Under the pieces are notes generated by a model. That model saw only the letters and a list, made by a program, of their open reading frames with translations, was not told the DNA's origin and searched no databases. A stretch of 64,000 nt of DNA, from the NCBI RefSeq assembly GCF_056746865.1, contig NZ_CM163382.1; one strand, 5' to 3'. This document shows, piece by piece, positions 5,462 through 53,923 of the stretch. The position numbers were made by a program, and so were the translations under genes. Numbering within the stretch: the first letter of the stretch is position 1; every line of letters starts with the position of its first letter.

Positions 5462-6346
5462 TTATTCCTCCCTCCAGCGGTATCCATACACCTGTTTCAC
5501 CCAGCGACCGCGACCGTCGCCATGACCCAGATCCGTCGCCGTCAGCGCCAGGGATTCCTTTTCGCTGAATCCCTGCGCCAGATAATGGCGGATCGCATCC
5601 TGCGCCCAGGCATAGCGCAGGGAGTGAGGGGAAAATTCCCCCTTCAGCCCCACCTTAATGACCTGTTTGTGCCAGCTCTCCAGCGCCATTTTGAGATCAG
5701 GCTTGTCGATCAGCCTGCCATTGTGTCGATCCGCGACCAGTAAGGCCTTTTCCAGAGCCTTCCTGACTGCGCCAGTATCCAGAACTGTCGTATGGCGGGG
5801 ACGCCCACCTTTGGTGCCAAACACCACTTTCAGCCGGTTTTCCCCGCGCTCAATGGCTTTCAGCCACGTTTTCAGCGACAGTGAACTCTGTACCGCTTCC
5901 TGCGAGCGTAACCCCATCAGTCGCGCGATCTCCAGCGCCGCAGCCAGCCCCGCATCCTCAGCGCGGGCTTTCTCCATAACCTGCTGGTAATGTTCCGGCG
6001 TAATGGCGCGGCGCGTACCGTTGCGTGAAGCGCCCGACACTCCCAGCGCCTTATTGGTTAGGCGTGGATGCTCCACCACCTGCCTGCGTCCAGCCTGTCT
6101 CAGCACGGCCTGCAGTGCCGCCATGTCGTTTTGCAGCGTTCGTAAACCAATATCCTGCTCCAGCCGTTCCTCAATGTAGCATTCGATATGGCGAACCCTG
6201 ATCTGCTCCACCCGCTGGATCTGGATATTCAGCGCCCGTAAATGTTCACTGAACCGTTTTGTAATATGGATACGGTCATTCACTGTTTTAAAGCTGCCGC
6301 CCGCTTTCTTCGCCAGCGCCTTCATTTCACTGCTTAATTTACTCAT
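5462..6346 (-). CDS. Tyrosine recombinase / phage-integrase-family protein (294 aa), apparently intact
   Basis: The C-terminal region has box II HSLRYAWAQD and the Tyr-containing tail LGHGDGRGRWVKQVYGY. The N-terminal region resembles the proteobacterial prophage integrase N-terminal domain type. There are no internal stops. Confidence 0.7.
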   Translation of the reverse strand: MSKLSSEMKALAKKAGGSFKTVNDRIHITKRFSEHLRALNIQIQRVEQIRVRHIECYIEERLEQDIGLRTLQNDMAALQAVLRQAGRRQVVEHPRLTNKALGVSGASRNGTRRAITPEHYQQVMEKARAEDAGLAAALEIARLMGLRSQEAVQSSLSLKTWLKAIERGENRLKVVFGTKGGRPRHTTVLDTGAVRKALEKALLVADRHNGRLIDKPDLKMALESWHKQVIKVGLKGEFSPHSLRYAWAQDAIRHYLAQGFSEKESLALTATDLGHGDGRGRWVKQVYGYRWREE

Positions 6347-44318: not shown

Positions 44319-44839
44319 TTTCAGACAGATATTATTTCCGTGAATCCCCCGCCACCTTTCCGGTGCGCGGGGTTTTGTCTTTTTTCACCGGGAATACATG
44401 TATGAATCCGTCTGATGCCATTGAGGCAATTGAAAAACCGCTCTCCTCCCTGCCTTACTCACTTTCCCGTCACATCCTGGAACATCTGCGCAAACTCACC
44501 AGTCACGAACCCGTGCCTGGCATTATGGGTAAAAGCGGGGCCGGTAAATCCTCACTCTGTAATGCGCTGTTTCAGGGGGAGGTCACCCCGGTCAGTGATG
44601 TTCACGCCGGCCCCCGGGAAGTGCAGCGCTTCCGTCTTGCAAAATGGCATCTGAATCGATCGCAGTTTGGCATTCGAATCGATCATGATTTGGCATCCAT
44701 CTCCGATCACAGTTTGGCATCACAATCGATCACGATTTGGCATGCTTCCGATCATTGATTGGCATCCTGCCAGTCACTCCGGGAATTAACTCTTTTCACC
44801 ACAGTCTCCATTGCCGTGTTTAAACCAGTGGAGACGTCA

Positions 44840-46405
44840 ATGTCCAGAAAGAGAAAATCCAGGAGCACTATGGAAACCTGTTTTAAGATTCTTCAGCTCA
44901 AGTTCGACAAGAAGCTGACTAACCGTTGTATCGGACTGACGTTACACATCAGCGCCTCAACCGTTTTTGAGGTTCTTGCCCGCTTCAAAGCCTCTTCTCT
45001 GTCATGGCCATTACCTGCTGATATATCCCATGACACGCTGGAGAAACTCATTTTTCCGCCCAAAGACACCTTTGCATCAGAGCTTGTAATGCCTGACATG
45101 TTGTACCTCGATACGGAAATGAGAAAACCAGGTGTGACGCGGCAACTGTTGTGGATGGAATACAAGGCACAGGCGGGTAACAAAGCGATGGGATACTCGC
45201 ACTTCTGCCGTTGCTACCGGGAGTGGAAAAAAACGCGACGTCTCTCCATGCGCCAGGAGCATCGTGCCGGCGAAAAGCTTTTTATCGACTTCTGTGGTCC
45301 TACGGTTCCTGTTATTAATCCGGACACCGGTGAGATACGCCGCGTGGCAATCTTCGTGGCCGTAATGGGGGCGTCCAACTATACCTACGTTGAAGCGTGC
45401 GAAGGTCAGGACATGATGTCATGGTTAAATGCCCACAGCCGTTGCCTGACCTTCCTGGGCGGCGTACCGAAGCTGCTCATCCCCGATAACCTCAGAAGCG
45501 CAGTGAAAAAGGCCGATCGATATGAGCCTGTCATCAACGACAGTTATCAGGCACTGGCTGAGCACTATGGCACGGTTATCATCCCGGCCCGACCACGCAA
45601 ACCTAAAGATAAACCAAAAGCAGAAAACGGCGTCCTCATCGTCGAACGATGGCTTCTTGCCCGCATCCGTAATGAAACCTTCCACACGCTCAGGGCGCTG
45701 AATGCGCGCCTTAGGGAGTTACTGACAGACATGAATAACCGGCCAATGAAGGGGTACGGCAATCAAACCCGTGCAGAACGCTTCCGCATACTGGATGCGC
45801 CAGCACTCTCTCCGCTGCCTCTGGCACCTTATGAATACACGGAATACAAAGCTGTGAAGGTTGGCCCTGACTACCACGTTGAATATGCCCGTCACTGGTA
45901 CTCCGTTCCACACGAACTGGTCGGTCAGCGTCTGTCACTGAAGGCGGGGCAGTCGGTGGTACAGCTCTGGCACAAGGGGCAGTGTGTGGCGCAACATCCG
46001 CGCAGCACACATGAATATAAACACACAACCAATCCGCTTCACATGCCAGAGCGCCACCGGCAGCACGGGACATGGACACCGGAACGCCTGATCGAGCAGG
46101 GAAAACGTACGGGCCCGTCCACAGGCCGGGTGGTTGAATCCATGCTGAAGGCAAAACCCCATCCGGAACTGGCTTATCGTGCAGTTCTGGGGCTGCTGGC
46201 ACTTCAGAAAAAATACGGCCCGGAACGGCTGGAAAAGGCCTGTTACGTTGCCCTGCACTATAACGCCCCTGACAGACGCTTTATCGACAATCTGCTGCGT
46301 CACCATCGGGAGAACCTGGAGCTTCCATTATCCCGCCAGGGCGAACAACATCCGGCATATGCTTCAGAGCATGAAAACCTGCGTGGTCCGGGCTACTACC
46401 ACTGA
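44840..46405 (+). CDS. istA: IS21-family transposase IstA
   Basis: HTH N-terminus and DDE core (...LFIDFCGPTVPVINPDTGEIRRVAIFVAVMGASNYTYVEA...). The ATG at 44840 follows GGAGACG. Confidence 0.85.
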   Translation: MSRKRKSRSTMETCFKILQLKFDKKLTNRCIGLTLHISASTVFEVLARFKASSLSWPLPADISHDTLEKLIFPPKDTFASELVMPDMLYLDTEMRKPGVTRQLLWMEYKAQAGNKAMGYSHFCRCYREWKKTRRLSMRQEHRAGEKLFIDFCGPTVPVINPDTGEIRRVAIFVAVMGASNYTYVEACEGQDMMSWLNAHSRCLTFLGGVPKLLIPDNLRSAVKKADRYEPVINDSYQALAEHYGTVIIPARPRKPKDKPKAENGVLIVERWLLARIRNETFHTLRALNARLRELLTDMNNRPMKGYGNQTRAERFRILDAPALSPLPLAPYEYTEYKAVKVGPDYHVEYARHWYSVPHELVGQRLSLKAGQSVVQLWHKGQCVAQHPRSTHEYKHTTNPLHMPERHRQHGTWTPERLIEQGKRTGPSTGRVVESMLKAKPHPELAYRAVLGLLALQKKYGPERLEKACYVALHYNAPDRRFIDNLLRHHRENLELPLSRQGEQHPAYASEHENLRGPGYYH

Positions 46406-46421
46406 CAGAAGGAACAACAGT

Positions 46422-47177
46422 ATGAGTGATAACCTGTTAAACAAACTGACCCAACTGAAACTCCCGGCGATGGCCGGGAGCCTGATACGGCAGCGGGAAA
46501 CGCCTCAGACCTACGACGAACTGTCGTTCGAGGAAAGGCTGACGCTGCTGGTTGATGACGAGCTTCTGAGCAGGGAAAACAGCCGTGTGGCACGGTTGAG
46601 AAAAAATGCCGGCCTGAAATACCAGGCAACACCGGAAGGGCTGCGCTATCCGGCCTCAAGAGGTCTGCGGGCTGAACAGATGAGAGAACTGCTGAACGGC
46701 CACTACATAACCCACAGGAAAAACCTGCTGATAACCGGTCCGACAGGATGTGGCAAGAGCTGGATAGCCAATGCGCTGGGCGAACAGGCATGTCGACAGA
46801 AACACAGCGTCCGGTACTGTAGAACCGGGCGATTACTGGAACAACTGGCTCAGGGACGTGTTGATGGCAGCTGGCTGAAATATCTGAAACAGTTGCAAAA
46901 AATACAGGTTCTAATCCTGGACGATCTGGGGCTGGAACAGTTAAGTAACGCCCAGTGTAATGACCTTCTGGAGCTCATAGAGGATCGTTACGGACAAAGC
47001 AGCACGATAGTGGTAAGCCAGTTCCCGGTAGATAAATGGCATGGTCTGATGGAGAACCCAACAACAGCAGATGCCATCCTGGACAGACTGGTACATAACT
47101 CACACCGGGTGGTCCTTCAGGGAGAGTCACTGAGGAAAAATCCCCCGGTAGTGGAAAGCAGCGAAAAAACGCGTTAA
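46422..47177 (+). CDS. istB: IS21-family helper ATPase IstB, 251 aa
   Basis: Starts MSDNLLNKLTQLKLPAMAGSL and has the Walker A motif GPTGCGKSWIANALG. The upstream in-frame extension to 46179 overlaps istA and is rejected. Confidence 0.9.
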   Translation: MSDNLLNKLTQLKLPAMAGSLIRQRETPQTYDELSFEERLTLLVDDELLSRENSRVARLRKNAGLKYQATPEGLRYPASRGLRAEQMRELLNGHYITHRKNLLITGPTGCGKSWIANALGEQACRQKHSVRYCRTGRLLEQLAQGRVDGSWLKYLKQLQKIQVLILDDLGLEQLSNAQCNDLLELIEDRYGQSSTIVVSQFPVDKWHGLMENPTTADAILDRLVHNSHRVVLQGESLRKNPPVVESSEKTR

Positions 47178-48007
47178 AAAGCGGTAGAAAAAGTTAAGTT
47201 CCCGGTTGATCGAATGGATGCGAATCGCTGATCGGACTTCGATGCCAATCCGTGATCGAATAGAGCGGAATACGCATCCGTCTGAATGGCCATGGTCACA
47301 GCATGGTTATCACTGACCTGCCCGGGGTGGGCGAGAGCCGGGACAGGGATGCAGAGTATGAAGCCCTGTACCGTGACATTCTGCTCGAACTGGACCTGGT
47401 ACTGTGGCTGATTAAAGCCGATGACCGTGCCCTGTCTGTGGATGAGTATTTCTGGCGACACATCCTGCACCGGGGACATCAGCGGGTACTGTTTGTGGTG
47501 ATGCAGGCCGATAAAACGGAGCCCTGCCATGAATGGGATATGGCCGGTATTCAGCCTTCTCCCGCACAGGCACAGAACATTCGCGAAAAAACGGAGGCGG
47601 TATTCCGTCTGTTCCGGCCCGTACATCGGGTTGTTGCCGTATCGGCCCGCACCGGCTGGGAACTGGATACGCTGGTCAGTGCGCTCATGACAGCACTTCC
47701 CGACCATGCCGCCAGTCCCCTGATGACCCGCCTGCAGGACGAGCTGCGCACGGAGTCTGTCCGGTCTCAGGCCCGTGAACAGTTTACCGGTGCGGTGGAC
47801 CGGATATTTGACACGGCGGAGAGCGTCTGCATTGCCTCTGTTGCACGCACGGTTCTGCGCGCCGTCCGTGACTCGGTGGTCTCTGTTGCCCGCGCGGTAT
47901 GGAACTGGATTTTCTTCTGAACCCGGTGGTGATGTACCAGGCTGTTGTTACAGATTTTTAACTCCATGAAAACACTATGCAAACGCAGCCATACCCGGGT
48001 TGTCCCC

Positions 48008-48036
48008 TTGCGTTGTGTTTCTCAAGTTAATAGAAT
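48008..48036 (+). promoter_or_regulatory. Predicted sigma70 promoter of the dynamin-like/patatin operon
   Basis: TTGCGT (48008-48013), 17-bp spacer, TAGAAT (48031-48036). The predicted transcription start is about 48043. Confidence 0.5.
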
Positions 48037-48038
48037 AC

Positions 48039-48076
48039 ATCGATCGTTACTATCATATCGATCGTTATAAACGATC
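48039..48076. promoter_or_regulatory. OxyR-like operator carrying three Dam GATC sites
   Basis: The sequence ATCGatcgttaCTATcatatcgATCGttataaaCGAT matches 13 of 16 core positions of the OxyR consensus ATAGntnnnanCTAT-N7-ATAGntnnnanCTAT at 11-bp phasing. GATC sites lie at 48042-45, 48060-63 and 48073-76, each inside CGATCGTT. The 12-bp palindrome AAACGATCGTTT lies at 48069-48080. Confidence 0.55.
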
Positions 48077-48137
48077 GTTTGTAGTAAATGACCTCCTCCG
48101 TGGTTGTCATGAAAATGCGTCTTAGGAAGGTTAAATA

Positions 48138-50534
48138 ATGCACGAAAAGAACATCGCCCTGCTTTGTGATGAAGCCGACCGACTTTTGCAACTGAACATT
48201 AATCTGCTCCGGCAAATGGTTGAGGAGCCAGATGTGTTATCTGACAGTAAGAACGAAAACAGACTGCTTTTTGATAAACAGAAAGCACTGAAAAGAATTG
48301 AGGAGCTGGAGGGCGAACAAATCAAAACCGCCCGCAGGGAGATGGTGCTGGCTGTTGTCGGCACGATGAAAGCAGGCAAATCAACCACCATCAACGCCAT
48401 TGTGGGGCAGGAAATTCTGCCTAACCGTAACCGCCCCATGACCTCTGTACCGACGCTCATCCGCCACGTTCCCGGAAAAACTGAGCCGGTTCTCCATCTG
48501 GAACATATTCAGCCTGTCCGCAATTTATTAATCACACTGCAGGAAAAACTCGCCACCCCGGCAGGACAGCAGGTCGCACAGACCCTGCAGCAAACCGGGG
48601 ATACCCGCGAACTGCTGGATATTCTGACGGATGATGGCTGGCTCAAAAATGAATACCACGGGGAGGAGGAAATCTTTACCGGACTGGCATCGTTAAACGA
48701 TCTGGTTCGTCTTGCTGCGGCAATGGGGACTGAATTTCCTTTTGATGAATACGCAGAAGTGCAGAAACTGCCGGTGATCGACGTGGAATTCAGCCATCTG
48801 GTGGGGATGGATGCATGCCAGGGAACACTCACACTGCTGGATACCCCCGGCCCTAATGAGGCCGGACAACCGCAGATGGAAGTGATGATGCGGGATCAAC
48901 TGCAGAAAGCCTCTGCGGTTCTGGCTGTGATGGATTACACCCAGATGAACTCAAAAGCGGATGAAGACGTCCGTAAAGAGCTTAATGCCATTGCTGACGT
49001 ATCAGCCGGCCGCCTGTTTGTACTGGTCAATAAATTTGATGAGAAAGACCGCAATGGCGATGGGGCAGATGCCGTACGCCAGAAAGTTCCGGCAATGCTG
49101 AACAGCGATGTGCTGCCCGCCTCCCGCGTTTATCCCGGATCCTCACGCCAGGCATACCTGGCTAACCGTGCGCTTCATGAGTTACGGAAAAACGGAACCC
49201 TTCCTGTTGATGAAGCCTGGGTCGATGATTTTATCAGAGGTGCCTTCGGTTGCATGAAAAAAGAATACGTCTGTAAAGACAGTGAACTGGCAACTGAAGG
49301 GGCGACAGACCTGTGGGAAGGCTCACTTATCGATCAACTGATAACGGAAGTCATACAGAGCTCACATTCCAGAGCTGCGGCACTGGCGGTTGACTCTGCC
49401 GCCGCAAAACTGATGCAGAATGCAGAAAATATCAGTGAATACCTGTTGTTACGCCATCAGGGGCTACAGCAAAGCATTCAGTCACTGCAGTCGCATATCA
49501 CCAGCCTGCTTGCGGATATCCGGGAAATCGCGGACTGTCAGGAGCAGATGACCACTGATGTCAGAATGGCCATGGAGGAGATCGATACTAAAACCCGGGA
49601 ATTACTGACGGGGGTCTGCACCTCACTGGAAGAGGAGCTGAATGACTATTTCAGAAGCGGTAAACGCAAAGAACAGCAAATGCTGGAGGAAGAAGACGCA
49701 GAACAACGAAGGTCTCAGTCCGGATTATGGGGGAAAATTTCTCAATGGTCCGGTATCAACAACCAGGGCCGGGAGGATTACAGGAAACGAGATTTTGCCC
49801 CGGACAGCCCCGAAATAAAATTCAGTGATCGCAGGGAAGCCCTTGAACTGATGACGCAAATCGAATCGACCGTGACCAGCCTGCACCGTGAGGCTGAAGC
49901 ACAGTTCCGGCCTGAGCTGGAGAAAATCGTCAGCGGGATTGAAACAGGTTTTCGTGGCACGGCCCTGTACGCCACAGAAAACATTGCCGGTCGCATCAAT
50001 GCCCGCCTGGAGGATGAGGGCTTTACCGTAAAAATCAGTTTTCCGGCAGTCAGCCAGTTACAGACCCGGCTCGCGGTAAAAATAAATCTGAGTGCGCTTA
50101 TGGAGGAAAGAACGGAGACCGTCACCCGTCGCCGTCGGCAGAGTGGCGTATGGGGAACCGTTTGTCGATGGTTTGGCACCAGTGACCTGGGCTGGGAAAA
50201 CTATGACGAGGATGTGAGTCGCAGCGTGATCAATATCAACAAGGTCAGAGAGGAAGTTATGTCACTGACCCGGGCATATTTCGGGGAGCTGCAGGCATCC
50301 ATTGAGCAGGATATTAACCAGCCCGTCCGCCAGGAAATCGATGCCTTTTTCTGCGCATTCAGGGAGAAAGTTGAACAACTGCGTAACACGCTGATTCAGA
50401 GCTCTGAAGATCATAAACGCGATCAGCAGGCGCAGGAACGGCTTACCGGGCGACTTCAGGCATTAAATGAAAGGGTTCCTGAGCTCATTACTGACAGTAA
50501 GGCGCTGAGGGAAGAGCTGGAGACAATGCTGTGA
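48138..50534 (+). CDS. Bacterial dynamin-like GTPase, CrfC/YjdA type (798 aa)
   Basis: GTPase motifs: G1 GTMKAGKST (res 75-83), G3 DTPG (235-238), G4 NKFD (298-301). The block EMVLAVVGTMKAGKSTTINAIVGQEILPNRNRPMTSVPTLIRHVPG closely resembles my recollection of E. coli CrfC. A long helical/coiled-coil C-terminal half follows. RBS AGGAAGG. Confidence 0.8.
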   Translation: MHEKNIALLCDEADRLLQLNINLLRQMVEEPDVLSDSKNENRLLFDKQKALKRIEELEGEQIKTARREMVLAVVGTMKAGKSTTINAIVGQEILPNRNRPMTSVPTLIRHVPGKTEPVLHLEHIQPVRNLLITLQEKLATPAGQQVAQTLQQTGDTRELLDILTDDGWLKNEYHGEEEIFTGLASLNDLVRLAAAMGTEFPFDEYAEVQKLPVIDVEFSHLVGMDACQGTLTLLDTPGPNEAGQPQMEVMMRDQLQKASAVLAVMDYTQMNSKADEDVRKELNAIADVSAGRLFVLVNKFDEKDRNGDGADAVRQKVPAMLNSDVLPASRVYPGSSRQAYLANRALHELRKNGTLPVDEAWVDDFIRGAFGCMKKEYVCKDSELATEGATDLWEGSLIDQLITEVIQSSHSRAAALAVDSAAAKLMQNAENISEYLLLRHQGLQQSIQSLQSHITSLLADIREIADCQEQMTTDVRMAMEEIDTKTRELLTGVCTSLEEELNDYFRSGKRKEQQMLEEEDAEQRRSQSGLWGKISQWSGINNQGREDYRKRDFAPDSPEIKFSDRREALELMTQIESTVTSLHREAEAQFRPELEKIVSGIETGFRGTALYATENIAGRINARLEDEGFTVKISFPAVSQLQTRLAVKINLSALMEERTETVTRRRRQSGVWGTVCRWFGTSDLGWENYDEDVSRSVININKVREEVMSLTRAYFGELQASIEQDINQPVRQEIDAFFCAFREKVEQLRNTLIQSSEDHKRDQQAQERLTGRLQALNERVPELITDSKALREELETML

Positions 50535-51436
50535 CTTCACCATTTATTCAACAAATTGCTGATAACCGGGTATGTCAGGTACTCACCTGTCTTCCTGAAA
50601 AATTTGTGGTTGATTTCGCAAACGGAATCGATGTTGCACAGGAGCATATCCGCACGGCCGGAGAGCGCACGTTCTTCCGGCGTTTAAAAGAGGGGCTGAC
50701 CGGCGAAGGCGCTGCACGGCAGAATGCCATCAATGCGTCGCTTGCACAGGGCGTTGAGGCGTCCCTGCGCTGGCTGACGGAGATGACAACGTCACTTGCC
50801 ACCACAAACTACGCGATTACCCGGGTAAACGACAGGGTCAGTTCACTGGTCAGTGATACAGCCAGGCTGGCGCATTATTCCGCAGATACGCGGGAGCAGT
50901 TACTCACCCTGGCCGATCAGGTTCACCATAAACTGAATCATCTTGAAGAAAAACTCCACCGTGTTGACCAGGTTCAGCGGGCGCAGTTACATCTTGAGCA
51001 GATATTCTCATGGTGGAGCGCCGGGCGATATGCGTCATTTTCCCCTGCCGGACGTTGTTATGTGGCACTTGAAGAGCTTCGCTGGGGCGCGTTTGGTGAT
51101 GTGATACGTCAGAGCGAAACAGGCCAGGTTAACCAGCTACTGGATATTCTCAGACATAAAGCATTAACGCAGATGGCACAGGAGAGTGGCGGTAGTGCAA
51201 CCGTGCGTCTGAACACTCTGGACTGGCTTGGTGGTCAGGGCCGGGAGCAGGCAGATAACGAGTGGCATGACGCGATTAACTGGCTGGGAGACTGGTGCAG
51301 TGAAGAGCAGCATCCGGTGATCTGGTCAACCACGCAGGCTGCAGAACACTTACCGGTTCGCATGCCTCGCCTCTGCTCTGCAGAACGCCTCTCTGAAAGT
51401 ATGGTCGATGAAATATTTCAGAAGGGGGCTGCATGA
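50531..51436 (+). CDS. Helical protein of unknown function, translationally coupled partner of the dynamin-like GTPase (301 aa); positional equivalent of yjcZ
   Basis: The GTG start overlaps the upstream stop (GTGA at 50531-50534). No catalytic motif recognised. The coiled-coil-like stretch is LTLADQVHHKLNHLEEKLHRVDQVQRAQLHLEQ. Confidence 0.6.
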   Translation: MTSPFIQQIADNRVCQVLTCLPEKFVVDFANGIDVAQEHIRTAGERTFFRRLKEGLTGEGAARQNAINASLAQGVEASLRWLTEMTTSLATTNYAITRVNDRVSSLVSDTARLAHYSADTREQLLTLADQVHHKLNHLEEKLHRVDQVQRAQLHLEQIFSWWSAGRYASFSPAGRCYVALEELRWGAFGDVIRQSETGQVNQLLDILRHKALTQMAQESGGSATVRLNTLDWLGGQGREQADNEWHDAINWLGDWCSEEQHPVIWSTTQAAEHLPVRMPRLCSAERLSESMVDEIFQKGAA

Positions 51437-52503
51437 GTACAGAAATGAAAACGGGGCTGGTGCTGTCCGGTGGCGGGGCGGTGGGCGCTTATCAGGCGGG
51501 AGTGGTTAAGGCACTGGCAGAGTGTGGTACACAGATCAGCATGGTTTCAGGGGCCAGCATTGGCGCATTCAATGGTGCCATTATCGCGGCCTCTCCCGAT
51601 CTGTCAGAAGCTGCCGTACGCCTGGAGGCGCTCTGGGATCATCTGGGGAATAATCAGGTGCTGTCGGTAAACAGATTGGTTTACTTTTCATTGCTGAAAA
51701 AATTGTTCCAGGCAATGAACCTCTGCCAGATCCCCGGACGTGCAGGAGCACTGCTTACGACGCTTCTTCGCCATATATCGACAATCAACGGGTTTGACAA
51801 TCTGATGGCTCAGCCGTTGTTGTCAGATGAGCCCCTGACAGCGCTGATGGATCATTATCTTGATACTGATGCTCTGGCAGACGGGCTACCGCTGTATGTG
51901 TCGCTGTACCCCACAGAAGGGGGCATGCAGGATATTATTGACTGCATTCGTGCTGAACTGGGTGTCGGAACCACGAAAAACGCCGTTTTTCAGCATATCC
52001 AGAGCCTGCCCCGCGGACAGCAGAAAGAGGCTCTGCTTGCGTCAGCCGCGCTGCCCCTGCTGTTCCGTCCCCGTGAGGTTCAGGGGACAATGTTCGGTGA
52101 TGGTGGTATGGGAGGATGGCGAAATATGCAGGGAAATACCCCTGTGACGCCTCTGGTCGATGCCGGATGCAATATGGTGATTGTGACGCATCTGAGTGAG
52201 GGTTCTTTATGGGATCGCCAGGCTTTTCCGGACACCACAATCCTTGAGATCCGTCCCCGGAAAAGGCTGAAATATGCAGGTGATGGTGGCAACAGCGGCG
52301 GTCTGCTCAGTTTTACATCGGCACATACCGACGCCTGGCGTCAGCAGGGCTATGAAGACACGATGCTGGCGATGGAGCATATCCGGAAACCGCTGGCAGC
52401 ACGTCAGGCACTGACCCGGTCAGAGGCGGTATTGCAGAAAAGCCTGGATATAACGGAAGAGGCAGATTTGGCACTGAGAAACGCGATGGCCCGGATTAAA
52501 TAA
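51433..52503 (+). CDS. Patatin-like phospholipase (356 aa)
   Basis: The ATG overlaps the upstream stop (ATGA at 51433-51436). Motifs: oxyanion GGGAVG (13-18), nucleophile elbow G-A-S42-I-G, catalytic D223-G-G. Confidence 0.85.
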   Translation: MSTEMKTGLVLSGGGAVGAYQAGVVKALAECGTQISMVSGASIGAFNGAIIAASPDLSEAAVRLEALWDHLGNNQVLSVNRLVYFSLLKKLFQAMNLCQIPGRAGALLTTLLRHISTINGFDNLMAQPLLSDEPLTALMDHYLDTDALADGLPLYVSLYPTEGGMQDIIDCIRAELGVGTTKNAVFQHIQSLPRGQQKEALLASAALPLLFRPREVQGTMFGDGGMGGWRNMQGNTPVTPLVDAGCNMVIVTHLSEGSLWDRQAFPDTTILEIRPRKRLKYAGDGGNSGGLLSFTSAHTDAWRQQGYEDTMLAMEHIRKPLAARQALTRSEAVLQKSLDITEEADLALRNAMARIK

Positions 52504-52519: not shown

Positions 52520-52545
52520 CGCCACCGCCTGTGGTGGTGTTTTTC
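52520..52545 (+). terminator. Rho-independent terminator of the three-gene operon
   Basis: CGCCACC (52520-52526) pairs with GGTGGTG (52633 is not used; pairing partner is 52533-52539), loop GCCTGT, followed by T5. Confidence 0.7.
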
Positions 52546-52833
52546 CTGTCTGGTGTTATTGAAAATATTTTCATATATATATTACCTGAGAGAAAGTTTT
52601 ACCCCTCACCTGTCAATTCACTCACTGGAAATTTAATTATGAAATTACCTGTAAAGTTATTAATGAGCCTTATATCTCTGGTCAGCGTTATTGCACGTGC
52701 CGGGGAATATAAAAATTACAGCCGGGATGAAATAAAATACTGGCGATATACATCATACAAGGGGGGGAAACTTCCGGAAGGTTTCACTGATGAGAAATTT
52801 TCCAGCGCCATTTACAACGGAAGAATATTTACA

Positions 52834-53322
52834 ATGAAACGTTTACATACCCTTATGTTATTTCTGGCGGTTCTGTTCACGGGCTTTAACTTTAACGCAG
52901 AAGCGGCTACCGTAAAACAAGCTCTTAGTTGTAACCCGGAAGCCTGGGCTGAACAACCTGGAGCGTGTCCATCAACGTACGAGTTGTACGAAGGTGACGC
53001 TACCTACAAAGCCGCTATCGACAAAGCATTAAAACCGGTCGGACTGAGCGGCATGTTCGGTAAAGGCGGCTATATGGATGGCCCTGGTGGAGGTATCACG
53101 CCAGTAAACATTAACGGTACAGTCTGGTTCCAGGGCGACGGTTGCAAAGCCAATACCTGCGGCTGGGACTTTATCGTAACACTCTATAACCCAAAAACCC
53201 ATGAAGTTGTTGGCTACCGTTACTTTGGTTTAGATGACCCGGCCTACCTGGTTTGGTTCGGTGAAATTGGCGTGCATGAATTCGCGTATCTGGTGAAAAA
53301 CTACGTAGCTGCGGTTAACTAA
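52834..53322 (+). CDS. Secreted Ivy-family-like protein (putative lysozyme inhibitor), 162 aa
   Basis: Signal peptide MKRLHTLMLFLAVLFTGFNFNAEA. The loop GCKANTCGWDFIVTLYNPKTHEVVG parallels the Ivy CKPHDCG loop and its following strands. The ORF is open upstream to 52531, so the start is uncertain. Confidence 0.5.
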   Translation: MKRLHTLMLFLAVLFTGFNFNAEAATVKQALSCNPEAWAEQPGACPSTYELYEGDATYKAAIDKALKPVGLSGMFGKGGYMDGPGGGITPVNINGTVWFQGDGCKANTCGWDFIVTLYNPKTHEVVGYRYFGLDDPAYLVWFGEIGVHEFAYLVKNYVAAVN

Positions 53323-53337
53323 TTTAAGGAGTCTATC

Positions 53338-53748
53338 ATGAAAACTTTTATCAAAACTTTACTCGTTGCTGTAACTATTCTGTTCTCTGTCTTCGCTACT
53401 GCGAAACAAGTAAAACTGCCAAATAACATCAAATACGTTAATACTACAGAAGCGTTTTCCTGTACCGAAATTGACGGTATGAATTGCCAGACAAAGAATC
53501 AGTTCAACTATAAAGATAACAGCTATGTTTTCGTGCTTGAACGTGGTGGTGCCTGGTGCTACGACTACACTGTCTCGGTAGTTAACCTGAAAACCGGGAA
53601 AGCACAAATGATTGAATACGGGGACAATCAACTGTGCTCAGGTAGCAACAAACCGTTCTTCGAAATCAAAAATGGCGTACCGACGGTAGGAGTCATCGAC
53701 ACATCCGGAAAACCTGTCGTTGTAGCCCAGGACAAACTTAAAATCTAA
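53338..53748 (+). CDS. Small secreted Cys-containing protein of unknown function, 136 aa
   Basis: Signal peptide MKTFIKTLLVAVTILFSVFATA. An RBS AAGGAG lies 6 nt upstream. The gene starts 15 nt after the previous stop. Confidence 0.6.
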   Translation: MKTFIKTLLVAVTILFSVFATAKQVKLPNNIKYVNTTEAFSCTEIDGMNCQTKNQFNYKDNSYVFVLERGGAWCYDYTVSVVNLKTGKAQMIEYGDNQLCSGSNKPFFEIKNGVPTVGVIDTSGKPVVVAQDKLKI

Positions 53749-53891
53749 GGAGTAAACCATGCGTTTCTCTGCACATTATTAATATCAAAGGTAAATACAG
53801 CCCCAGCCATTGTTACCGGAAAGCCGCTTAATGCGTGGCTCGCCAGTGAAAGGCCTCTCAGACAATAAACCTTATTCATTTCACCCGTCAG

Positions 53892-53923
53892 GCCGCGTCT
53901 TCTCCGGGAGACGCGGCTTTTTT
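53892..53923 (+). terminator. Rho-independent terminator
   Basis: GCCGCGTCT (53892-53900) pairs with AGACGCGGC (53909-53917), followed by T6. Confidence 0.75.

Follow-up and report, generated by a model that had tools for sequence, protein, structure and literature searches.

At positions 47921-48137 of the window, that is, the whole 64 kb stretch of DNA that was analysed, a 217-bp intergenic region separates a yeeP-like GTPase gene from the gene for a dynamin-family GTPase, the first of a three-gene operon that ends with a patatin-like phospholipase. The downstream part of this region, at 48008-48137, contains a promoter-like sequence followed by three Dam target sites (GATC) within a predicted OxyR operator. 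From its sequence, we consider it quite probable that this element is a functional relative of the regulatory region of agn43 (flu) and cah, subjecting the dynamin operon to Dam/OxyR phase variation. Its parts are as follows.

48008-48013, + strand: -35-like hexamer TTGCGT, read from the sequence; the same hexamer is present in the cah-type switch.
48031-48036, + strand: -10 hexamer TAGAAT, 17 bp from the -35 hexamer and inside the invariant block TAATAGAAT.
48039-48075, + strand: predicted operator of the OxyR-tetramer type, with two palindromic half-sites, ATCGATCGTTACTAT and ATCGTTATAAACGAT.
48042-48045, no strand: GATC-I, a Dam target aligned with GATC-I of K-12, with the predicted transcription start at it or beside it.
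48060-48063, no strand: GATC-II, a Dam target invariant in an 11-copy alignment and lost in 2 of 43 sampled copies (both described below).
48073-48076, no strand: GATC-III, a Dam target invariant in the same alignment and in all 43 sampled copies.
48086-48137, + strand: 3' half of the leader, found with the direct switch-dynamin arrangement only, with a Shine-Dalgarno sequence, AGGAAGG, at 48124-48130.

The promoter hexamers, the three GATCs, a repeated word around them, the regular spacing of four tetranucleotides, and a match to 13 of the 16 core positions of the OxyR consensus had been described in an earlier note on this DNA, and every coordinate was confirmed in the sequence. The word CGATCGTT is found at 48041, 48059, and 48072, each time enclosing a GATC, and occurs only once more in the 64 kb, whereas ATCG, CTAT, ATCG, and CGAT are located at 48039, 48050, 48061, and 48072, in steps of 11 bp throughout. 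The 37-bp OxyR consensus (ATAGnTnnnAnCTATn7ATAGnTnnnAnCTAT, with 20 specified positions, 16 core) was slid along the entire window, and the site at 48039 was the top match among approximately 64,000 positions, with 16 of 20 specified and 13 of 16 core positions; the second-best match reached 13 of 20, or 11 of 16 for the core, and a binomial estimate predicts around 0.03 matches of such quality per window. The operator starts just past the end of TAGAAT (48036), in a repressor geometry that overlaps the predicted start. There are 189 GATCs in the window and none in 47921-48137 apart from these three. A group of three within 35 bp is not rare alone (around 0.7 such clusters expected); what is non-random is its combination with the repeated 8-mer, the phasing, the position after the -10 hexamer, and the homology to agn43. 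The sole other cluster of three GATCs within 35 bp, at 5695-5728, was considered as a second switch and discarded, as it apparently lies in a coding region, has no OxyR match, and is probably due to chance.

These figures also bear on a different explanation, in which the GATC cluster lacks regulatory meaning or 48059-48077 is a hairpin or attenuator of the leader RNA. About 0.7 triple clusters per window are indeed expected by chance, and the segment 48059-48077 is a palindrome, CGATCGTT-ATA-AACGATCG, with GATC-II and GATC-III in the arms of a perfect 8-bp inverted repeat (the equivalent K-12 stem is only 6 bp), which the scanner reported as terminator-like; the predicted fold of the leader is somewhat more stable than those of shuffled sequences (z = -1.7). 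However, the stem is followed by a poor T-run (TTTGTAG), the fold lacks significance, with 11 of 200 shuffles equal or better, and no Rfam family was matched, so that the presence of an RNA family in the leader, isrC-like or other, was rejected. Moreover, such a palindrome is how an OxyR (LysR-type) half-site looks, and chance is excluded by the homology and the cross-genus footprint described below. We thus hold this explanation to be most improbable.

An alignment with the K-12 yeeP-flu intergenic region, set beforehand in the earlier note as a check, was positive. The ends of both yeeP genes are near-identical, the next ~100 bp have diverged, then the block TAATAGAAT and the three GATCs align, and similarity stops there. 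Local alignment of the core (48028-48077) with the K-12 region gave 78% identity over 51 bp (E 3e-8), while blastn matched 47958-48085 (+ strand) to the yeeP-cah regulatory region of O157:H7 at 66% over 129 bp (E 7e-14), and both matches support the identification as an agn43-type switch advanced in that note. The core is also 85% identical over 52 bp to a Citrobacter copy. Judged by these alignments, the element is homologous to the agn43/cah switch. Since the annotated 5' end of K-12 isrC is the G of GATC-I, transcription likely starts here at ~48042 and the operator would cover about -4 to +33, in agreement with the position previously predicted for it. In blastn, the leader half 48086-48137 showed similarity neither to the leaders of agn43 and cah nor to the cah-dynamin spacer of O157.

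Comparison across genera revealed how little of the region is held constant. In an alignment of 11 copies drawn from Escherichia, Shigella, Citrobacter, Enterobacter, and Yersinia, the invariant block consists only of TAATAGAAT..CGATC..TCGATCGTT..CGATCG, with the TAGAAT hexamer unchanged in the 11 switches of the five genera and both flanks unalignable. When one genome per bacterial species was scanned for the pattern, the switch turned up in nine records, all enterobacterial (two of E. coli, and a single one of Shigella flexneri, E. ruysiae, E. albertii, Citrobacter amalonaticus, C. braakii, Enterobacter wuhouensis, and Yersinia similis); three extra matches in metagenome-assembled genomes of unrelated taxa appear to be fortuitous. 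The GTPase beside the switch is only ~58% identical in Citrobacter and Enterobacter, where the cargo is made up of two small signal-peptide proteins, followed by DUF932. This footprint constitutes the strongest computational evidence for a functional module that would be maintained independently of its cargo.

Two of these genera deserve separate mention. In Citrobacter amalonaticus (L008, 4897-6075), and also in L015, L016, L083, and L140, a switch with GATC spacings of 19 and 13 bp (19/13) precedes open reading frames (ORFs) of 154 and 157 amino acids without any Pfam family, a third kind of cargo. In Yersinia similis (L009, 688-733), an 18/13 switch-like element has no ORF of at least 100 amino acids downstream on the same strand for ~2.9 kb; the island has YagK/YfjJ and a yeeP-like GTPase elsewhere, and the switch-like element may be a remnant.

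In agn43, three GATCs lie in the OxyR site, the methylated state being ON and the OxyR-bound state OFF, with dam mutants locked OFF and oxyR mutants locked ON (PMC2909390, PMC3764049, PMC4872104). Another possibility for the present locus would be a plain OxyR promoter, used for repression or for an oxidative-stress response, with no role for Dam and no heritable states, in which the GATCs are by-products of the ATCG/CGAT words. The GATCs are in fact embedded in the OxyR tetranucleotides, and many genes under OxyR are not phase-variable. Nevertheless, the consensus is ATAG/CTAT and not ATCG/CGAT, and the departures from it are exactly those that create a GATC, three times, as in agn43. In addition, both reduced and oxidised OxyR bind at agn43, where repression occurs whatever the oxidation state (PMC2909390). 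A plain OxyR promoter therefore appears very unlikely.

The operon that follows the switch, and that would form the switched unit, is composed of three genes and a likely terminator.

48138-50534, + strand: dynamin-family GTPase of 798 amino acids, an RdcA/YjdA/CrfC paralogue (Pfam Dynamin_N; P-loop GTMKAGKS).
50531-51436, + strand: YjcZ/RdcB-like protein of 301 amino acids (Pfam PF13990, 4e-70; 30% identity to K-12 RdcB), whose start overlaps the dynamin stop by 4 bases.
51433-52503, + strand: patatin-like phospholipase of 356 amino acids (Pfam Patatin, 3e-24), whose start overlaps the preceding stop by 4 bases.
52520-52539, + strand: terminator-like hairpin followed by a T-run, from the promoter/terminator scan, where the operon probably ends.

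The dynamin GTPase scored 556 bits (1e-166) against the NCBIfam CrfC model, under the equivalog cut-off of 1146, and is 33% identical to K-12 RdcA, which makes its gene a paralogue and not an orthologue of RdcA. The patatin motifs are intact, with GGG(13), GASIG(40), and DGG(223). A search among known defence systems (PADLOC) gave negligible matches for the cargo. Identity with Eleos (LeoA/LeoBC) was rejected as well, as the sole match was a 60-residue P-loop region to LeoBC (E 9e-5), with no stretch passing alone, and the RdcB-like protein had none; nor is K-12 YeeR a remnant of the dynamin gene, as no similarity was found between them. Conservation of the switch-operon pair beyond Escherichia was also sought through homologues of the dynamin protein, and only relatives at least 93% identical were listed by the protein search. 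RdcA and RdcB activate the diguanylate cyclase DgcE and hence the production of curli and cellulose (PMC6510439); a function of this type would, as a speculation, fit the biofilm and aggregation theme of Ag43 and Cah.

The distribution of the region was surveyed in 5426 complete E. coli genomes, counting the 217-bp intergenic region at a coverage of at least 80%. It was present in 1983-1985 of them (37%), mostly at an identity of at least 95%, and in every case inspected it was flanked by the GTPase and dynamin genes. Carriers of the locus include UTI89, an ST131 strain, O104:H4 HUSEC2011, and strain 50579417. The dynamin gene itself was found in 2476 genomes. O157:H7 and others carry, one after another, the GTPase gene, the switch, cah, and the dynamin, rdcB-like, and patatin genes, and a junction between an Ag43/Cah gene and the dynamin gene is present in 635 genomes. 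It follows from these counts that practically every copy of the operon is placed either directly behind a switch or directly behind an Ag43-family gene that itself follows a switch, and with both arrangements counted, the operon stands behind a switch in ~46% of the genomes. No promoter-like or terminator-like site was found in the 110-bp cah-dynamin spacer of O157. Read-through from the switch into downstream cargo has a precedent in agn43-yeeR-irmA, a single OxyR-repressed transcript in CFT073, EC958, and 83972 (Moriel et al. 2016, PMC4807369).

The earlier note had proposed that the flu coding region was swapped for the three-gene operon while the switch was kept. The first half holds in the sense that the dynamin operon takes the place of flu at the CP4-44 site; the second half requires correction, as the switch is a separate, cah-like allele. 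Neither is the operon a foreign replacement, given its position directly downstream of an Ag43/Cah gene in the 635 genomes mentioned, and the absence of the autotransporter describes the situation equally well. The autotransporter may have been either lost in one arrangement or gained in the other; the two share no related sequence just upstream of the dynamin gene. An origin by clean deletion, with cah excised from the cah arrangement, was hinted at by O157 strain TR01, whose junction occurs in 1 of the 5426 genomes, and was rejected; islands of the usual O157 type have, just ahead of the dynamin gene, 44-52 bp without similarity to the leader of the window. In TR01 (L003, 8222-8331), the 3' flank of cah runs into the 44 bp seen upstream of the dynamin gene in the direct arrangement, and this hybrid junction probably arose by recombination of two islands that shared a cell.

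The GATCs are separated here by 18 and 13 bp (18/13), whereas every Ag43- or Cah-linked copy shows 19 and 13. This association was followed in 121 loci obtained from a pattern scan of metagenome and viral contigs, with a perfect correlation between spacing and cargo. All 29 metagenome loci of the 18/13 form had the dynamin gene behind the switch, while the 19/13 form was found before Ag43 or Cah in 87 loci and before the small secreted protein of the Citrobacter type in 2; the remaining three were all 19/13, two of them ending too early downstream to be classified and one on a contig from a viral collection. In the latter (L144, 769-2065), a cah-type switch and ~100 bp of its leader run straight into DUF968 and antiterminator-Q genes, with further ORFs after them, forming a prophage junction. 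E. albertii also has an 18/13 switch, preceding a dynamin gene that is 93% identical. Compared in this way, the 18/13 copy is a distinct allele that most resembles the cah type and goes with the dynamin operon, and the spacing of 18 between GATC-I and GATC-II is treated as a property of the allele rather than as a feature that defines the family.

With one base fewer between GATC-I and GATC-II, the first ATCG enters the 11-bp register, and consequently, the site matches 16 of the 20 positions of the OxyR consensus, compared to 14 of 20 for the experimentally validated K-12 site. Such a score makes the allele look tuned, not decayed. This is relevant to the alternative of a relic, a descendant of the agn43/cah switch that no longer varies in phase, with OxyR binding either too weak (constitutively ON) or too strong (almost always OFF), and that would act as a plain or silenced promoter. 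A relic could explain the spacing unlike that of any Ag43-linked copy, the existence of natural copies without GATC-I or GATC-II or with a 17/13 spacing, and the fact that the switch is the most polymorphic part of the intergenic region. Against it, in addition to the better consensus match, stand the constraint on the core across genera and the retention of the three GATCs in E. albertii and in most copies of a sample assembled irrespective of GATCs. For this sample, 43 full-length upstream regions, representing 18 alleles, were collected through BLAST or an exact look-up of the dynamin protein, and 39 of these dynamin-linked copies kept three GATCs at 18/13. All in all, we find a relic unlikely, though it is a more serious competitor than the other two explanations.

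The four exceptions are natural variants that we regard as candidate locked or re-tuned alleles. GATC-I is changed to TATC in L019, GATC-II to AATC in L152 and L166, and a 1-bp deletion in L174 (CP002211, uropathogenic E. coli clone D) gives the 17/13 spacing. Among the 43 copies, polymorphic sites cluster between the -35 hexamer and GATC-II, with a recurrent C/T right before GATC-II and in CTAT(C/T)A, and hardly any variation occurs in the 52 bp upstream of the dynamin start codon.

Several points weigh against a working phase-variation switch and have to be set beside the evidence in its favour. The promoter hexamers were not called by a simple promoter scanner, as the -35 matches at only 3 of 6 positions, a weakness shared by the proven K-12 agn43 promoter (TTGTCC, 17 bp, TAGAAT). 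The departure of the GATC-I to GATC-II spacing from all Ag43/Cah-linked copies may affect OxyR binding, and the loss of a GATC or the altered spacing in 4 of the 43 copies indicates that the architecture is not inviolable. In that sample, most polymorphism is held by the spacer and the switch, the 3' half of the leader being almost invariant; as these copies are closely related, their conservation is weak evidence either way. Within E. coli, the identity of at least 95% among most intergenic copies means that conservation inside the species says little about selection. The pattern scans demanded GATCs and are therefore unusable as proof of their conservation. Finally, no methylation, OxyR-binding, or expression data for the locus were found in the searchable literature.

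Regarding its genomic context, the switch belongs to an island whose neighbouring genes include the following.

44402-44637, + strand: 5' fragment of the yeeP-like GTPase gene; in blastn against L001, which has an intact 873-bp gene, homology breaks at 44637 and resumes at 47273.
44638-47272, + strand: IS21-family insertion (istA, istB; Pfam rve/Mu-transposase C-terminal domain and IstB_IS21) that splits yeeP.
47273-47920, + strand: 3' fragment of the yeeP-like GTPase gene, annotated as a GTPase family protein in L001, with a 3' end near-identical to K-12 yeeP and a stop codon that opens the intergenic region.
52639-53322 and 53338-53748: two ORFs after the patatin terminator, with signal-peptide-like starts and no Pfam family.

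The IS21-family element is located ~650 bp upstream of the switch and outside it; a related element interrupts the dynamin gene instead in strain KMi025 (L145, 14242-16549). Past the operon come the two small signal-peptide ORFs, DUF932, an antirestriction gene, yeeS, yeeT, cbeA, cbtA, yeeW, tmaR, and yeeA, and the series cbeA-cbtA-yeeW-tmaR-yeeA places the island at the CP4-44 site of K-12, which has yeeP-isrC-flu-yeeR at the corresponding place. No Ag43 gene is present anywhere in the window. The two ORFs were considered as YeeR or IrmA, which was discarded: the first is not similar to YeeR, and the second matched none of the solved structures, that of IrmA included. A stronger terminator-like hairpin is found at 53890-53919, beyond both of them, and one tRNA-Ser and four tRNA-Asn genes at 1564-22432 correspond to the tRNA-Asn cluster region upstream of the island.

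According to the mechanism that we propose on the basis of homology to agn43, a weak sigma-70 promoter (TTGCGT-17-TAGAAT) would start transcription at ~48042, and the first ~35 transcribed bases would be the OxyR operator with its three Dam sites. In the OFF state, OxyR would occupy the unmethylated or hemimethylated operator after replication, blocking RNA polymerase and shielding the GATCs from Dam, and this state would be inherited. In the ON state, also heritable, Dam would methylate the GATCs first and exclude OxyR; switching would take place at replication. The unit switched in this way would be the translationally coupled dynamin-like GTPase, RdcB-like, and patatin operon (48138-52503), ended by the hairpin and presumably transcribed as a whole. 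Genomes with the switch-dynamin arrangement would thus probably turn the operon on and off heritably, and expression would be heterogeneous among cells, as the earlier note had suggested in terms of bet-hedging. The better consensus match may bias the 18/13 allele towards OFF.

On a broader scale, the switch looks like a backbone element of yeeP...DUF932 islands of the CP4-44 type, placed right after the GTPase gene and driving variable cargo, which would comprise Ag43/Cah; Ag43-YeeR-IrmA; Cah together with the dynamin operon; that operon by itself; and small secreted proteins in Citrobacter and Enterobacter. We put forward, more tentatively and as a proposal that could well prove wrong, that it is, rather than a promoter of agn43 as such, a cargo-independent and epigenetically bistable expression slot of these islands in Enterobacteriaceae, which would bring an RdcA/RdcB-like GTPase pair and a patatin under heritable ON/OFF control in nearly half of E. 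coli strains, with co-expression of Cah in O157-type islands. Since RdcA and RdcB activate DgcE, the module could affect cyclic di-GMP, matrix, or membrane state, which could then be inherited by lineages and coupled to aggregation.

Both the mechanism and the element belong to a known kind; the cargo, the allele, and the notion of a portable slot are new as far as can be told. In the full-text literature searched (subscription-only papers were outside its reach), no paper was found that links Dam/OxyR or phase variation to the dynamin operon, none in which dynamin, oxyR, antigen 43, and E. coli all occur, and no methylome table at site level from a strain with the operon. In E. coli, phase variation by Dam and OxyR is taught as a trait of one adhesin gene family, and here the switch has its own conserved allele before an operon that does not encode a surface protein. 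The switch is also re-framed in this way as a portable module belonging to a widespread family of islands whose cargo varies. Provided that the switch works, bulk RNA-seq, mutant phenotypes, and transposon-insertion sequencing (Tn-seq) data on the operon would be averages over ON and OFF lineages, a warning already present in the Ag43 literature (PMC3764049), and the function of a bacterial dynamin/patatin module would become accessible by sorting natural ON and OFF cells.

With respect to known systems, the K-12 agn43 (flu) region in CP4-44 shares with the present element the chromosomal site, the position after yeeP, the block TAATAGAAT, the spacing of 13 between GATC-II and GATC-III, and three GATCs in an OxyR operator that starts around +1. 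It differs in the spacing between GATC-I and GATC-II (19, compared to 18 here), in the -35 hexamer (TTGTCC, compared to TTGCGT), and in the rest of the leader, including isrC, which is absent here; in addition, an autotransporter adhesin is encoded downstream there, and cytoplasmic GTPase and phospholipase-type proteins here. The cah region of O157:H7 is the closest relative in sequence, has the TTGCGT hexamer in common, and belongs to an island that also carries the dynamin/RdcB-like/patatin operon. However, its spacing is 19/13, an autotransporter gene stands between the switch and the operon, and the 44-52 bp upstream of the dynamin start codon are unrelated to those found here. In agn43-yeeR-irmA of uropathogenic E. 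coli, genes other than adhesins are co-transcribed behind the switch and repressed by OxyR, the same logic as that proposed here (PMC4807369), although agn43 is still the first gene, the cargo is another, and YeeR is dissimilar to the dynamin protein.

Competition between Dam and OxyR at GATC-bearing OxyR half-sites, giving rise to heritable ON and OFF lineages, is likewise found in Salmonella gtr and opvAB and in phage Mu mom (PMC2909390). In gtr/opvAB, there are four GATCs in two pairs, and 3-4 OxyR half-sites located upstream of the promoter and providing alternative activating and repressing positions (PMC2909390), whereas the locus described here has three GATCs and a single putative repressor site downstream of the -10 hexamer. 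Dam/Lrp systems of the pap type are based on two GATC boxes ~102 bp apart in Lrp sites and on a PapI-like co-regulator (PMC2909390), an organization different from the 18/13 spacings of the present element. Finally, with respect to RdcA/RdcB (YjdA/YjcZ), the first two genes of the operon are paralogous and show the same order and the same overlap of stop and start; here, in contrast, they are borne by an island and followed by a patatin phospholipase, and the K-12 rdcAB genes are under flagellar FlhDC/FliA control and not under Dam/OxyR (PMC6510439), the type of control that the switch described here would impose on their island-borne relatives.

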